Of a DNA stretch of 64,000 nucleotides, positions 5,153-36,600 are shown in pieces (position 1 is the stretch's first letter; each line of letters starts with the position of its first letter). This stretch comes from a virus. Where the stretch lies: the UHGV virus genome UHGV-1372970; one strand, 5' to 3'. The translations under genes were made by a program, and so were the position numbers. A model generated the notes under the pieces. That model did not search any database. It saw only the letters and a program-made list of their open reading frames with translations, and had not been told where the DNA came from.

Positions 5153-5226
5153 GTGTTTTCCTTTATTGTAATAAACAAGTTGTTATCTTATGTGTTTAAT
5201 TAAGGTCAATCAAAAACGTTACACGG

Positions 5227-6733: not shown

Positions 6734-6816
6734 TCCTTAAACAAGTTGTTTTCTAATGGCTGATATTTTACGGAGAAAGAAAAGGCGCCAGAAATGACGC
6801 CTTTTGGTTTGTTCGA

Positions 6817-12693: not shown

Positions 12694-12828
12694 AGTAAAC
12701 CATTACTTATCATTTGGTATTTGATAATAGCACGAAAAAGCAGGGTGTTGATGCAAATATGGTTATCTGTAGATGTTTGATATAGGGTGTACAATAATCC
12801 AACATTACAGTCGCTTAAGGACGGTACG

Positions 12829-13224
12829 ATGGCTAATAGAATCCCTCTCGACCCAAAATTGCCTGTTAATTTCCATAACACTCCCAACGGAAATCGCTCA
12901 AAGAAACAGCTTGATGAGTGGTGGGATCACCCTTATGGGTTGATTCAGGAGGATGGTTCTATCATGGTTTTGTGTTTGAATGGTGGTTCCTGGGATCGTC
13001 CTTCTTTACTCGGTGTTGCGGAAAATCATGATGAGGCGTGCGAGTTGGCAGAGAAGGAGCAACGTAATTGGGTGAAAACTCGTGAGCAGCCTATCTTTAG
13101 GTACTCCACCAATCCGCCTTTTGAACTGATAAGAGACTCGCAACGACCAGATGAAGAACAGGTGATTGTTGCCTCCTTTGATACACTCGAAGAACTGCAT
13201 CAATACTTATCACAAGGAGATTAG
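12829..13224 (+). CDS. hypothetical protein (start MANRIPL)
   Basis: Plus-strand accessory gene. No recognised motif. Confidence 0.4.
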   Translation: MANRIPLDPKLPVNFHNTPNGNRSKKQLDEWWDHPYGLIQEDGSIMVLCLNGGSWDRPSLLGVAENHDEACELAEKEQRNWVKTREQPIFRYSTNPPFELIRDSQRPDEEQVIVASFDTLEELHQYLSQGD

Positions 13225-13301
13225 TAGCCGTCTATAAATGTTAGGTATATCTGATTGCCTGCTTTAAAACTCATACTCGTGTCACTTACGGCTATATATA
13301 G

Positions 13302-14591
13302 TTGTTTAATATAAGGAGTTGGTGCTTGTCATCTTGGGCTGAAATAAAAATTGACGGGTTTGTGATTGACGAATTTACTCATCATGGCTGTCATTATTGG
13401 TACTTCAAAAACTCTGAGCGGGTTAGAGACGTCACTGAAACAGCGTCTGAAGAGGATTCGGATGAGGTGAGCTGTTTTATAGGATACAGGACTAACGCAA
13501 AATCAATACGAAAACGCTTGGAACTGAGCGGCTTTAGCCGTCAGACGTTGGAGCAGGATTTTGAAACCAGTCTTGAAAACTTTATCGATGAGCTTGAGAG
13601 AGGACTCGGCGCATTACACGATAATCTTTCTGATGGCCGTAGTGCTTCCATGTATCTTGAAATAATTGATACCCAGAATCATATAATTCAAGCCATTCGG
13701 GGTACATCGCTTGACGAATGGCTTGAATTATTGCCGGTGGCGCGAAAGGAATATGTGAGACGACAGGGCGATTTGGCTTTTTCTAATGGCGCCCCTAAAT
13801 GGGTTATATGCGACAGCGCCCCAGCATTACTTAATGCAATGCTAAGTACGCCGATGATTTATTCAGATAACTATTTAAGTGCTGACTTTAATTTCCCGGC
13901 GTCAAACCCTGATTTCTTTTCTCTGGCGCTGCTAATGACGGTGCAGGATGATGCCGTTTGCGAGCTTAACCTGACAGAGCTTGTTCGTGCAGGTTATCTA
14001 GATGATTTTACGGATCTTGCTGAAATAGCCTTATCTGAAACTTCACCTTGTAAAGCTTGTCGCGAATCGCTTGCAGAGTTGGAACTGTTGGCAGGGGTAG
14101 ATCTATCAAACCCAACTCTCCAGAGGATGTGCTATGCCAGCATGATTACCTCAATGGAAACCTATATTGGTGACATTATTAAACGTGAAATCATGACGCG
14201 ACCTGCTTTGAAGGAGCGTTTTGTTGCGAGCTACGAAGAATATAGTGAAATGAAATTTCCACTTAGTCAGATTCACGTTCAGCTTCGTAAATTAGAAAAC
14301 CGGGTTCGTGATACTCTAGATGGCATTGCATTCCACAATTTGGGTAAAGCTAAGGAAATATTCCGTAATGTATTACTCGTAGAGTTTGATATAAACATAT
14401 TTGGAAAACTTTGCAAGGCAGTTGGTACTAGAAATGATATTGTTCATCGAAATGGGAAGGACAAAAAGGGAAATGCTGTCAGTGTTAATATTAATGATAT
14501 TCAGGCGCTTAGAGAGATGATTGTTGTGTTTATCAGCAACATTGATATGCAAGTGTTGGATGGCCTGGCCGCAGCTTGCTTAGAAGATTAG
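13302..14591 (+). CDS. large accessory protein with C-terminal HEPN-like Rx4H motif (GTRNDIVHRNG)
   Basis: Strong SD TAAGGAG at 13311. The likely start is TTG at 13326. Plus-strand gene inside a minus-strand block. Confidence 0.45.
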   Translation: MFNIRSWCLSSWAEIKIDGFVIDEFTHHGCHYWYFKNSERVRDVTETASEEDSDEVSCFIGYRTNAKSIRKRLELSGFSRQTLEQDFETSLENFIDELERGLGALHDNLSDGRSASMYLEIIDTQNHIIQAIRGTSLDEWLELLPVARKEYVRRQGDLAFSNGAPKWVICDSAPALLNAMLSTPMIYSDNYLSADFNFPASNPDFFSLALLMTVQDDAVCELNLTELVRAGYLDDFTDLAEIALSETSPCKACRESLAELELLAGVDLSNPTLQRMCYASMITSMETYIGDIIKREIMTRPALKERFVASYEEYSEMKFPLSQIHVQLRKLENRVRDTLDGIAFHNLGKAKEIFRNVLLVEFDINIFGKLCKAVGTRNDIVHRNGKDKKGNAVSVNINDIQALREMIVVFISNIDMQVLDGLAAACLED

Positions 14592-14770: not shown

Positions 14771-15193
14771 TTACTGAAGGAGTGCGCCGATCAGTGTTTT
14801 TTTGCCGACAGTCCGACCAGTAATCGCTATACGCTGTGCTCTACGCTCGCGATAGTCGCTCACGCTGCTGGACTTTTCGACTTCCATAAACTCTCTGGCC
14901 ACCTTCATGATTAGAGAATCCCTGAATGCTTCGAACTCAGTCAGTTCCTTCTCGACATCCGTTGCTTTTGCCAGTTTGACTAGACGCCCGCGCACCTCGG
15001 AGTTATTTACCCGTTTCAACATCACTCTGGCGCAACTACGTGCCGCCTTATTCGCGCGTTCGCCGCCAAGAACGGCAACTTTCATCGCGAGGCGAACAGT
15101 GACAGGGCTATCGGCTATCTCCCAGAAAGCAGATTTGTTTACAGCAACGCTGGCCTTGTCGATAAACTCTTGTGACACGGTAACTTCTGTCAT
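14771..15193 (-). CDS. hypothetical protein
   Basis: ATGA overlap with the DnaE C-piece end. Confidence 0.45.
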   Translation of the reverse strand: MTEVTVSQEFIDKASVAVNKSAFWEIADSPVTVRLAMKVAVLGGERANKAARSCARVMLKRVNNSEVRGRLVKLAKATDVEKELTEFEAFRDSLIMKVAREFMEVEKSSSVSDYRERRAQRIAITGRTVGKKTLIGALLQ

Positions 15194-16350
15194 GCTAATG
15201 CCTCTTTGATGTCTTCCATAATCAGCCCCAGCTTTTCACCTTCCTCTGGGCGGAAGTGAAGAATGCCCGGATTAAACCCGTAGAAGACGGTCAAATCCAT
15301 TGCTGAGAAATACTCTTTACGCCCGACCAGATCCGTCGGTTTCGTTTTGTCGTTAAAAAGCGCTGACGAGATTCGGCCACACGTCAGGACGTAGGTTGGC
15401 TTGATCAGCTCCAACTCTTTCTTCATGAACTCGATATAGGTGTTTTCTGCATCGCGGGACAGCGGTAGCTTTTTGTCCTGCTTGATGACGCCGGTGACAT
15501 ACACCTCGCTCATACGCAGATCACCGTTAACAAGCATCTTGGCCTTCAGGTCGTCGTAGCCGTTCTCCATGAAGATCCCCGTCCTGATATCGTTGCCATT
15601 GGCCGTATCGAGGATAATCATCAATTTAGGAGAGACGCCGATGTGCGGAGTCACTAGATCTTCACCTATACCAACCTCTCTGCGAAGCTCTTCCATCAGC
15701 ATAGAAACTTCCGCCTGGCGCTTCGGGTTCATCTCGAACGGACGGTCAATTTTCACAGCGTCGATAATAAGACTACCCATCAGCTCAGATTGAGTCTTGC
15801 GTCGTGACTCAGCCAGCGCTGGCTCGCTCCCCGGTTCAATACTGGCAAATGCGCCAACGGCGTCCAGCGCTTCCTGTACACGGATATTGCACAGCCTAGC
15901 TTCGATCGCCTCTTTGAATTGCGCTCTGGACTCGAAAGCTCCGCCGACACGTTCGCGAGCACGAACGATGGCGAAACAGCCTTTCTCAGAACAACCTTTA
16001 ACAGCGGAGAAGGGGGCATAAAGAGCAGTACGGCCGTCTGACAGCTCCTTTATCTCGATACGCTCAGTTGAGATGTTAATGTCGGGCGGCATGACGATGA
16101 CCCCACGCGCCAGCGCATCTTTAACCACTGCGCGATGCTTCTCATCGTCTTGAATGGTCAATGCGGCCGCAAAGAACGCCGCTGGGTGATGTGTCTTCAG
16201 ATACATCGACTGATAGCTGATCGCGGTGTACGCCACTGCGTGGGATTTGTTAAAACCATACGATCCGAACTTCTCGAAGGCGTCCCATACTTCTTTAGCT
16301 TTCAGCTCACCGAGTCCTGGGCGCTCTGAAACGATTTTAGTGATCTTCAT
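15190..16350 (-). CDS. dnaE: DNA polymerase III alpha (DnaE), C-terminal piece (fingers end, beta-binding, OB)
   Basis: FNKSHAVAYTAISYQSMYLKTHHPAAF matches the E. coli DnaE region around aa 760-790. Own RBS. Confidence 0.8.
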   Translation of the reverse strand: MKITKIVSERPGLGELKAKEVWDAFEKFGSYGFNKSHAVAYTAISYQSMYLKTHHPAAFFAAALTIQDDEKHRAVVKDALARGVIVMPPDINISTERIEIKELSDGRTALYAPFSAVKGCSEKGCFAIVRARERVGGAFESRAQFKEAIEARLCNIRVQEALDAVGAFASIEPGSEPALAESRRKTQSELMGSLIIDAVKIDRPFEMNPKRQAEVSMLMEELRREVGIGEDLVTPHIGVSPKLMIILDTANGNDIRTGIFMENGYDDLKAKMLVNGDLRMSEVYVTGVIKQDKKLPLSRDAENTYIEFMKKELELIKPTYVLTCGRISSALFNDKTKPTDLVGRKEYFSAMDLTVFYGFNPGILHFRPEEGEKLGLIMEDIKEALA

Positions 16351-16420
16351 GTGTTTTCCTTTGTTAGAAAAACAAGCTGTTTACGTGTTTAGAAAACAAC
16401 TTGTTTTCACATGTTACTTA

Positions 16421-18793
16421 TTATTTTGAGGTGTCAAATTCAATAATGTCGGCATCGTCTTCCATCGCCTGGATGGCAGTTCGCTTTTTGCCGTCAGTGC
16501 ATTGGTGAAGCGCTGCGCGGTGAACAATGACAGTCTGGCCATCATCAGTTTGAACCTCCAGCCAACCCAGCTGCGCACGTTCTGAGAAGTCAGCACCGAT
16601 CTTTTTCATCTTCTCGATGTCTTTTTTACCGATCGCTTTCCTGACCATGTCAGCCTCGGCAAGTGAGAATCCAGCCAGAATCTGCGATGCCTTCATGATC
16701 TGTTCCTGATAGACCAATACGCCGTTTGTTTCTCTTGTCAGATCGTCAAGACTTGGGTGAAGCGATGAGGCATCTTCGTAACCACGCGCAACACTGACGT
16801 AGGTATCCATCATGCCTGACTGCATCGGGCCAGGTCGGTAGAGCGCTGTCGTGGCAACGGCCATCTCAAACGACATTGGCTTTATGCCGCTTCCCAAATT
16901 TTTAAGCAGGTTTCTCATGCCGCCAGACTCGAACTGAAATACGCCGGTTGTTTCGCCCAGCGCCATGCCGTCGAGTACGCGCTTGTCGTCCAGTGGGATC
17001 GCATCGAGGTTGACGTCTATACCCTCGTTCTCTTTGATGTAGCGCTTAGCCAGCGCCAGCAAATCGAGAGTAGCCAGCCCTAACACGTCCAGTTTGATAA
17101 GCCCCATGGATTCACAGAAACGCTTGTCAAACGCGATACAGCGCACACCGTTGCGTAATTCCACTGGTGTACGTTCTGTTAACGGAACGCCAGACACAAT
17201 TACCCCTGCAGCGTGTTTGCTGTAGCTGCGCATCAGTGACTGGAGTTTACAAGCCGCCTCGAACGCTTCTGGATTGGCTTTGGCGTATTTGTCCAGCGCC
17301 CCCAACTGCTCGCGTGTTTCTTCGAGAGATAAGCCCTCGTCATCGAATGGCTTCAGCTGCTTTGATACGGCCATATCTTCAGACGACACGCCATAAATTC
17401 GCGCCGTGTCACGCAGTGCCGAAGCCATGCCCAGATATGAGAAGTTTGGAATGCCGGCGACATAGTCTTCACCGTAATGCTCTTCAAGATATTCAAGAAC
17501 ACGCTGGCGCAGAGCCTGGCTGAAGTCCAGATCCGCATCGGGTAAGTCGAGACGCTCCGGGTTGATGAAACGCTCAAACAGCAATCCATGACGTAGAGGG
17601 TCAATATTGGTGATCCCAATAGCCCACGCAACCAATGAGCCTGCAGATGAGCCACGACCAGGGCCAACGGGAATATCTTCTTCTCGCGCCCACGTAAGTA
17701 AGTTCTCCACCATCAGGAAGTAACCGCAGAAACCCAGGCGCTTCAGCACAGATAACTCATAGCGGAGACGGTTGATATACATTGGGTACTGTTCGGTCGG
17801 TGGCTTCCATCCAAACTCAAGCGTCGTTAAGCGTCGTTTCAGGCCTTCAGCTGCCATGCGAGTTAGCTGTTCGCCTTCGTCTTCTGCCATTACTGGAAGA
17901 CTCACCGGCATTTCATGCCATCGCCAGCTGCACGCCGAGATGATCTCATCCTGAGTGTCGTTAACCATGGCGGAACTGACGCCCTCGACGTTCATGCGCT
18001 TGGCGAACTCCATCAGACGAACCAGCAAATGCTTGCGGTCCTGAATTGAGTTATCGCGTTGGTGAGGGATATGGAAGCGATAAGGCTGATCTGTTTTGAT
18101 GTTATTGATAACCATGTGCGCAATGTCGCGCAGGTCAGCATCCTCTTCCTTTTCGTAATATGCAGGATAGAACGCCACAGGAGCGATTTTAAGAGCCTGG
18201 GCGACGCTCATTGCCTTCTTGTTCAGCTGATCATACAAAGGCGTGGAAATGGGGTACACGACGCTATAGAAGTTGTCGCGACCACCCGCAGAAAGTAGGG
18301 CGGATAAAATACTGACGAAATCAGGCCGGTGGAAGATGCTGTCACGGTCAGAAGTCAGAAGTAAGATGTTACCTTTGGCATATGTCTCAACCAGCTGCCT
18401 CAGTGAGATCCGCGGTATAAAGTAAAACTGCTCGCGGCGGTTGCCCAGCGTCATCAGCTCGCAAAGGTCTTTATACCCTTCGTTGTTTTTGATCAGCGCA
18501 GTAAAGCTGTACTGGCGACCCATTTTGTAAACGGGTACTTCCTCACCTGACTCTTTTGCTTTTTTCACCAGTCCTTCATGGAATGGGTTATCACTAACGA
18601 TAAGACGAACGCCGCAGACGACGGCCATGTCGTCGCCGGCTGATTGCTGCAGCGGGATGATTGATGCCAGGTTCATTGTGTCAGCGCTAATGACGGCTGA
18701 GTAACCTAGCTCTTTTGCCACTTGCACGACACGACCGGCTTTTAACGCCGACTCCCCGAGGGAAAAGTCAGTGCGTACCATTAATGCTTTCAT
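16421..18793 (-). CDS. dnaE: DNA polymerase III alpha (DnaE), N-terminal piece (PHP, palm, thumb, most of fingers)
   Basis: PHP domain at the N-terminus. GSxxG, YQEQ and GKK motifs present. Confidence 0.85.
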   Translation of the reverse strand: MKALMVRTDFSLGESALKAGRVVQVAKELGYSAVISADTMNLASIIPLQQSAGDDMAVVCGVRLIVSDNPFHEGLVKKAKESGEEVPVYKMGRQYSFTALIKNNEGYKDLCELMTLGNRREQFYFIPRISLRQLVETYAKGNILLLTSDRDSIFHRPDFVSILSALLSAGGRDNFYSVVYPISTPLYDQLNKKAMSVAQALKIAPVAFYPAYYEKEEDADLRDIAHMVINNIKTDQPYRFHIPHQRDNSIQDRKHLLVRLMEFAKRMNVEGVSSAMVNDTQDEIISACSWRWHEMPVSLPVMAEDEGEQLTRMAAEGLKRRLTTLEFGWKPPTEQYPMYINRLRYELSVLKRLGFCGYFLMVENLLTWAREEDIPVGPGRGSSAGSLVAWAIGITNIDPLRHGLLFERFINPERLDLPDADLDFSQALRQRVLEYLEEHYGEDYVAGIPNFSYLGMASALRDTARIYGVSSEDMAVSKQLKPFDDEGLSLEETREQLGALDKYAKANPEAFEAACKLQSLMRSYSKHAAGVIVSGVPLTERTPVELRNGVRCIAFDKRFCESMGLIKLDVLGLATLDLLALAKRYIKENEGIDVNLDAIPLDDKRVLDGMALGETTGVFQFESGGMRNLLKNLGSGIKPMSFEMAVATTALYRPGPMQSGMMDTYVSVARGYEDASSLHPSLDDLTRETNGVLVYQEQIMKASQILAGFSLAEADMVRKAIGKKDIEKMKKIGADFSERAQLGWLEVQTDDGQTVIVHRAALHQCTDGKKRTAIQAMEDDADIIEFDTSK

Positions 18794-36562: not shown

Positions 36563-36600
36563 GTGCTTTCCTTATTGTTTTAAACAACTTGTTTTCTAAA

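Follow-up and report, generated by a model that had tools for sequence, protein, structure and literature searches.

The 64,000-nucleotide stretch of the virus genome UHGV-1372970 that we analysed (hereafter the window) contains, on its minus strand, a dnaE gene for a C-family (DnaE, Pol III alpha) DNA polymerase that is divided between two cistrons. The upstream cistron, the N-piece (16421..18793), encodes 790 aa that comprise the PHP domain, the Pol III alpha catalytic core, most of the fingers and a C-terminal tail. The C-piece (15190..16350) encodes 386 aa, beginning with a short head (MKITKIV...) and continuing with the last finger helices, which include the GFNKSH motif, a helix-hairpin-helix (HhH) domain and a uracil-DNA glycosylase (UDG)-like domain. 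Both minus-strand open reading frames (ORFs) are present in the ORF list at the lengths described in an earlier, sequence-only reading of this DNA, and the assignment of everything from PHP to fingers to the N-piece was borne out by Pfam profiles (PHP, DNA_pol3_alpha and DNA_pol3_finger) and by NCBIfam profiles. Searches of the same kind matched the C-piece to Pfam HHH_6 and to the end of the fingers. Three independent profiles built on one-piece polymerases divide cleanly between the two products, since the N-piece covers positions 9-725 and the C-piece 728-888 of PRK05673 (NCBIfam), the N-piece extends to position 723 and the C-piece starts from 726 of TIGR00594, and the corresponding intervals in phrog_405 are 47-769 and 772-1171; in each case the pieces abut with a two-position gap and zero overlap. 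Together they cover the one-piece homologues of SSU5 and RHEph10 in alignments. The PHP domain, catalytic core, fingers and HhH domain of a bacterial Pol III alpha are present according to Pfam, NCBIfam and a Foldseek search with an AlphaFold2 (AF2) model of a homologue, P0007, which matches the structures 5fkv, 2hpi and 2hnh.

The N-piece ends in ...DIIEFDTSK, followed by tandem TAA stop codons (16421-16423 and 16418-16420, minus strand). The stop that had been placed at 16418..16420 is therefore a real TAA, but it is the second of the pair. Reading of the sequence also confirmed an intercistronic spacer of 70 nt (16351..16420) with two repeated motifs and a full ribosome-binding site (RBS), the Shine-Dalgarno sequence AAGGA (16357..16361, minus strand) lying 6 nt 5' of the C-piece ATG (16348-16350). 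The GGAAAACAC-ATG start context of the C-piece recurs in a relative, L010, and before other genes of the window. The two cistrons are in different reading frames, and the tandem stops, the 70-nt gap and the C-piece's own AAGGA-N6-ATG do not correspond to a programmed frameshift or to read-through.

The window is part of an SSU5-like Klebsiella oxytoca phage-plasmid of ~111 kb: the stretch is 99.9% identical to K. oxytoca plasmid pCAV1752-111 (CP018360, 111 kb, non-mobilizable; L001), and 32 more Klebsiella plasmids match it. Independently assembled relatives with nucleotide identities of 99.9%, 98%, 81% and 74% keep the two-gene layout, so the split is genuine and the stop is not a sequencing error. 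The relative at 81% (L002, CP027615) has the same two genes and a 70-nt spacer, that at 74% (L003, CP037443) the same two genes and an 84-nt spacer, and the N-piece stop is retained in L001, L002 and L003. Comparison of the window with L002, in which synonymous sites are saturated (dS above 1), gave ratios of non-synonymous to synonymous substitution (dN/dS) of 0.034 (N core), 0.085 (45-aa tail) and 0.027 (C-piece), values that point to strong selection on the two-piece dnaE. An artefact or a decaying gene, whether through sequencing error, pseudogene formation or rescue by read-through or frameshifting, would have in its favour solely that a stop codon lies within a normally single gene. Against it are the tandem stops, the change of frame and the C-piece's own Shine-Dalgarno sequence and ATG, the recurrence of the layout in at least 33 independent plasmid assemblies, the spacers of 56-84 nt in relatives, in differing relative frames, and the dN/dS of ~0.03 for both pieces. 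We consider this explanation to have a negligible chance of being correct; the dN/dS values together with the layout kept in relatives exclude sequencing error, pseudogene and read-through, and the idea is already refuted on these grounds.

What occupies the break in other members of the family bears directly on its origin. Searches with the C-piece as query recovered many C-pieces of 385-417 aa, at identities down to 33%, nearly all of which begin with MKIxxI. Contigs of relatives carry, in order, the N-piece, a free-standing NUMOD4-HNH homing endonuclease gene (176-238 aa) and the C-piece, separated by gaps of 0-80 nt, so that the slot of the endonuclease corresponds to the spacer of the window. 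This gene is found in L010 (a Logan assembly, C-piece 63% identical to that of the window), in L021 (Klebsiella pneumoniae CP021945, ~63%, where its product, WP_071961431, is annotated as 'NUMOD4 motif-containing HNH endonuclease'), in L018 (Acinetobacter brisouii, 33%) and in L019 (a metagenome, 39%), and a different HNH type fills the slot in L016 (a metagenome, 37%). The HNH proteins of L010, L018 and L019 are ~40% identical over their full length and are therefore orthologous, having diverged about as much as the polymerase. In tblastn searches, copies of the endonuclease were detected in ~242 Enterobacterales plasmids at >=90% identity and in ~97 Acinetobacter plasmids at ~42%, and 974 PLSDB plasmids encode this DnaE C-piece, including plasmids of Yersinia pestis, Salmonella and E. 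coli.

No remnant of the HNH gene was found in the window by tblastn, the spacer being only 70 nt long; a free-standing endonuclease gene at the break, as expected of 'genes in pieces', is thus seen in the relatives and not in the window. The flanks of the break are nonetheless shared. The N-piece ends are similar (DIIEFDTSK* in the window, DIVDFGV* in L010), and the 3' ~20 nt of the spacer (CTAACAAAGGAAAACAC-ATG-AAG-ATC) are homologous to the L010 sequence between the stop of the endonuclease and the start of the C-piece (GCTAGCAACGGGAAAACAC-ATG-AAA-ATT). From the shared ends and the spacer homology it follows that the window carries the same break without the endonuclease ORF, which is replaced by ~50 nt. 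A genome contig search with the C-piece alone gave no confirmed relative, the last 174 aa of the N-piece as a protein query returned almost only short fragments, unusable for counting split versus one-piece genes, and L020 (CP133154) was excluded as a frameshift-ridden assembly. Two of the Logan loci have deletions nearby. At L009 6001-7176 an in-frame fusion joins the HNH gene to the final ~225 aa of the C-piece, with loss of the finger end and the HhH, and at L010 6001-7662 the C-piece lacks the UDG-like domain and is fused to a gp32-like gene; these derivatives are possibly defective plasmids or assembly artefacts.

The sequence at the break had also been read as a duplication, with the same junction segment in both pieces, and as lying within a few residues of the site at which cyanobacterial DnaE carries its split intein. 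Neither claim was confirmed. The profile coordinates abut, and the match itself (FSERAQLGWL versus VSERPGLGEL, 6/10) was reached by 261 of 20,000 shuffles (1.3%). In eight relatives these two regions reach 5/10 at most, whatever the register, and in L002, whose N core is 91.5% identical, the equivalent pair FSDRAQLGWL/ISEKPGLSES shares 2/10 by eye. The match appears to be a lineage-specific resemblance, with duplication unsupported; what is kept at the two ends of the module is, at most, an 'x-x-G-hydrophobic' turn. As for the second claim, residue 30 of the C-piece aligns with position 35 of NF005616, the profile for cyanobacterial DnaE-C, which places the cyanobacterial intein site at Y31|G32 of the C-piece (Y|GFNKSH), 31 residues downstream of the break.

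The absence of Hint or intein blocks, on the other hand, was upheld: neither piece, nor the tail joined to the head, matches a Hint, intein or endonuclease profile, and the Hint/Intein families of Pfam give no match to them even at E<=1. The junction also lacks the features of a split intein, since the 45-aa tail starts at W|LEV and the head reads MKITKIV|SER. True split inteins do occur in the family at other DnaE sites, in L014 (2634-8650) and L018 (1691-5352); each has one at GPGRGS|S, and L014 has another at FQFE|SGGM. Between the intein halves lies a free-standing ORF, an HNH_3 in one case and a protein of ~310-340 aa in the other; the ORFs of this size belong to phrog_33911 in L014 and show a weak TnsA-like endonuclease N-terminal match in L018. 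These examples, and a tail that begins strand-turn-strand, vaguely like intein block A, are what would favour viewing tail and head as a degenerate split intein that either still trans-splices or merely docks. Such an origin is highly improbable, because tail and head together make up ~55 aa where a Hint fold takes at least 130 aa, intein position 1 (W|LEV) is not Cys, Ser or Thr, there is neither a TxxH block B nor a terminal HN, Pfam gives no Hint or intein match, re-fused and one-piece relatives retain the module in the mature protein, and the site is unlike the cyanobacterial one. Inteins are also present in a recA-like gene of relatives, at L009 12339-13176 (Intein_splicing and LAGLIDADG_3) and at L018 10517-12046 (Intein_splicing). 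The replication and recombination module of this phage-plasmid family is a hotspot for selfish elements.

Both sides of the break bear additional sequence. The 45-aa C-terminal tail of the N-piece (LEVQTDDGQTVIVHRAALHQCTDGKKRTAIQAMEDDADIIEFDTSK, 16424..16558, minus strand) is the larger part of a ~55-aa module that is completed by the C-piece head of ~10 aa, in which MKIxxI is conserved down to 33% identity. The layout of the module is GW-[strand-turn-strand-helix-strand]-stop...MKIxxI-strand, and it sits in a loop between two finger helices. The tail had been described as having no DnaE counterpart, which is correct with respect to canonical DnaE but not within the family, where it is a conserved module that also occurs in the one-piece DnaE of SSU5. 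It is missing from the one-piece DnaE-UDG proteins of Rhizobium RHEph10 (1137 aa), Pseudomonas nickie, Rhizobium V1VFA-S and Stenotrophomonas ANB28, all of which lie in syntenic CobT/CobS...exo/RecA contexts. These module-less genes read F-x-x-G-A-x-x-x-G-[IM]-...-F-D-x-[IV]-E-x-F, as in E. coli, and L014, unbroken at this site, also lacks the module. Every module-bearing gene, by comparison, is either split or shows signs of re-fusion, and the module is present in SSU5 and in all split relatives. Tail and head are thus extras at the break that unsplit homologues do not have, another property of 'genes in pieces'. The tail of L021 is only 34% identical to that of L022, though their N cores are 95.8% identical, a local mosaic that is typical of sequence moving with, or reshaped by, a homing element. 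No Pfam family matched the tail above threshold, and profile searches with tail plus head for inteins and endonucleases returned only a sub-threshold, SH3-like match of 15 residues.

By structure prediction the module is folded. The AF2 model of P0007, a natural one-piece fragment (mean predicted local distance difference test score, pLDDT, 90), places strands at 119-124 and 129-133, a helix at 148-154 and a strand at 158-165, between finger helices 101-115 and 170-184. P0007/P0008 (544 aa) had itself been considered as a second split site, but this proved to be an artefact of an N run in the scaffold, where the gene is one-piece. For the window we modelled an artificial fusion of N-piece residues 617-790 with the C-piece (pLDDT 90.5). 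The tail is predicted to fold as three strands (128-133, 138-142 and 147-149) and a helix (157-162), with pLDDT around 87-93, residues 168-174, at the junction, are a coil of lower confidence (pLDDT 74-79) and the C-piece head M1-R10 forms one long strand. Strands may pair across the break, with tail and head most likely making up a single small docking module for the two pieces, and the dN/dS of the tail (0.085) is consistent with a conserved structural module rather than scar junk.

The polymerase is known in at least four states within this one family: intact without the module, split with an endonuclease, split without one, and re-fused. Members of the SSU5 clade proper, whose N cores are 88-98% identical, include genes split with the HNH (L021 and L010), one-piece genes of 1172 aa (SSU5, ST13-OXA48phi12.3 and pJN2-26) and one-piece genes of 1168 aa (Cyrano and L011). 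Splits without an endonuclease are found outside the window in L025 (73-nt spacer) and L027 (56 nt), and at L028 3113-4486 the slot holds three unrelated ORFs (172, 95 and 184 aa), the first matching phrog_3806, and no endonuclease. The SSU5-type one-piece gene reads ...EAGVKLP-M-AAVRVTGSQPGLSE, where the split gene of L025 reads ...ADGADILGL* [73 nt] MKVVRVVSDKPGISE; at the DNA level ~80 nt comprising the tail end, the stop and the spacer are missing from SSU5 relative to L025, and the ATG of the C-piece is kept. The SSU5-type one-piece genes are best read as products of a secondary re-fusion. A neighbour-joining tree of the C core, with poorly resolved deep nodes, groups the window, L002, L027 and L003 in a clade that is wholly split without endonuclease, the endonuclease-bearing forms falling in a sister clade and in outgroups.

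We consider it probable that this SSU5-like phage-plasmid DnaE is a 'gene in pieces', broken in the fingers by a free-standing NUMOD4-HNH cassette that has since been lost. The cassette would have entered the loop between two finger helices and brought or created the N-piece tail, the stop, the endonuclease gene, the Shine-Dalgarno sequence and ATG, and the short C-piece head MKIxxI. The endonuclease ORF would then have disappeared from the clade of the window, leaving ~50 nt with two plasmid-specific palindromes in its place, and the break, tail, head and C-piece translation start would have persisted after this loss. The enzyme would therefore be made as polypeptides of 790 and 386 aa that reassemble non-covalently, most likely with the help of a docking module to which the tail contributes three strands and a helix, and the head a single strand. 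From the outset the split had been proposed to be the scar of an insertion such as a lost homing element, and this part of the proposal is strongly supported by the HNH gene in the identical slot of relatives and by the shared start of the C-piece; the two arguments then offered for it were wrong, as the duplication is a lineage-specific resemblance and the intein site of cyanobacteria lies elsewhere.

Some of the evidence weighs against this history. Since the window retains no trace of an HNH ORF, the loss has to be deduced from the relatives. The group formed by the window, L002, L027 and L003 in the tree is wholly without endonuclease, so the absence is old, and the occupation of the slot by a different HNH in L016 and by three ORFs in L028 indicates that it takes tenants once broken. 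These observations would fit a gene first broken by some other event, its gap becoming a landing pad for endonucleases or cargo later, with the window representing the original, never-invaded split. The usual location of free-standing homing endonuclease genes, which is between genes, also speaks for this order of events, as do the two unrelated HNH types and the three-ORF insert in the slot and the endonuclease-free state of the window's entire subclade. We nevertheless regard it as unlikely. In three deep lineages, with C-pieces diverged to about the same extent, the slot is taken by orthologous HNH genes (products ~40% identical), module and break always co-occur, the C-piece start region is common to endonuclease-bearing and endonuclease-less forms, and no other mechanism accounts for tail, stop, RBS and head having been gained together. 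In our preferred reading, invasion by the cassette, the endonuclease would have caused the break and was probably lost from the window clade rather than never gained. A wider proposal, which we put forward only tentatively, is that the module is a docking device that arrived with the mobile cassette and holds the fingers together without splicing, the vacated slot having been reused as a palindrome-bearing regulatory spacer.

Several known systems resemble this arrangement. One is the nrdA-a/mobE/nrdA-b 'genes in pieces' locus of Aeromonas phage Aeh1, reportedly the subject of Friedrich et al. in 2007. There too, a free-standing homing endonuclease gene interrupts an essential gene of DNA metabolism with no intron or intein, new C- and N-terminal tails that are missing in unsplit homologues arise at the break, and two polypeptides are expected to reassemble. 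In Aeh1, the tails made by the mobE insertion are essential for NrdA-a/NrdA-b assembly (Crona et al. 2011, PMC3045599). Unlike Aeh1, the target here is a C-family (DnaE) polymerase of temperate phage-plasmids, the window has no endonuclease gene yet the break persists, and the family also contains re-fused genes. By analogy, the system may work like Aeh1 nrdA/mobE, minus the endonuclease in the window. Split PolB (gp43A/gp43B), said to have been described by Petrov, Ratnayaka and Karam in some T4-related phages, is reportedly also a replicative polymerase encoded by two cistrons that are divided at a variable surface region, with an endonuclease gene in the gap in some relatives and a short untranslated spacer in others; it differs in polymerase family (B versus C), phage group and endonuclease. 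The 'fractured gene' arrangement places an endonuclease between intein halves (Dassa et al. 2009, PMC2677866). It shares with our family the order N-piece, endonuclease, C-piece in phage DNA-synthesis genes, and L014 and L018 have the true version; unlike fractured genes, however, the window pieces cannot be spliced, because the break is without intein blocks. The DnaE-n/DnaE-c split intein of cyanobacteria, reportedly described by Wu, Hu and Liu in 1998, likewise divides DnaE into two pieces within the same part of the fingers, but at a site 31 residues downstream, with covalent trans-splicing and with the two genes far apart in the genome.

Our literature search found no paper describing this DnaE split. 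In clinical Enterobacterales and Acinetobacter, phage-plasmids of the SSU5 type (pHCM2, pMT1-related and Klebsiella ~110-kb plasmids) are widespread. If the wider, tentative proposal is true, a selfish element has permanently made an enzyme of two subunits out of a one-subunit polymerase in some of the ~974 clinically common phage-plasmids that carry it, and the same family also shows the reverse step, re-fusion. The four states form a natural series for following how an essential enzyme that a selfish element has fragmented can persist unspliced, and how long the scar outlasts the element. Should the vacated slot have become a regulatory spacer as proposed, the HhH-UDG piece could be expressed or regulated apart from the catalytic piece.

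The C-terminus of the C-piece (15193..15639, minus strand) is a family-4 uracil-DNA-glycosylase-like domain in the position that the OB fold and the tau-binding tail hold in cellular DnaE. Neither of these two was found in the C-piece, where matching to PRK05673 ends at position 888 of 1146. The window sequence matches TIGR00758 with E=6.7e-6, below the cutoff of that profile, and Pfam UDG with E=0.007, and the AF2 model of the P0007 homologue resembles family-4 UDG structures (4zbx, TMt 0.79). By eye, the domain has LDTANG and NPG where GE(A/G)PG and HPS are usual, and because these motifs are altered it may be catalytically inactive. Databases call the whole C-piece 'uracil-DNA glycosylase' or 'hypothetical protein', labels that miss its identity as the second half of DnaE.

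The repeated motifs of the spacer are two copies of the near-palindrome AAACAAGTTGTTT, copy 1 at 16394..16406 and copy 2, AAACAGCTTGTTT, at 16370..16382, and both are retained in L002. The consensus TAGAAAACAAGTTGTTT has 13 matches in the window against 2.2 expected. Further sites of the form (T)AGAAAACAAGTTGTTT lie before minus-strand genes at 5173-5185, 6739-6751 and 36582-36594, and the palindrome is located 8-12 nt upstream of the RBS or AAGGAAAACAC-ATG start regions of several other minus-strand genes. As AAACAASTTGTTT is absent from the fetched loci of other clades, the palindrome is clade-specific and no part of the endonuclease cassette; it is an intergenic signal, most likely a protein-binding operator or else a promoter-proximal signal. 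The spacer RNA folds with -19 kcal/mol (z -3.6), and the two copies as RNA can form a 12-bp A/U-rich hairpin followed by a U-rich run, a trivial consequence of both copies being palindromic. The spacer had no match in Rfam, and neither a sigma-70 consensus promoter nor a terminator-like site was found in it.

The neighbours of dnaE encode a CobT-like VWA protein, a CobS-like AAA protein, a gp32-like protein, a 5'-3' exonuclease and RecA, and constitute the SSU5 phage-plasmid replication module. CP018360 carries two annotated transposase genes (L001 1464-2584) immediately after the dnaE operon. In the window, ORFs of 145 and 429 aa lie at 12787-14591, roughly where the transposases of CP018360 are found, which may reflect an insertion sequence difference between the two.

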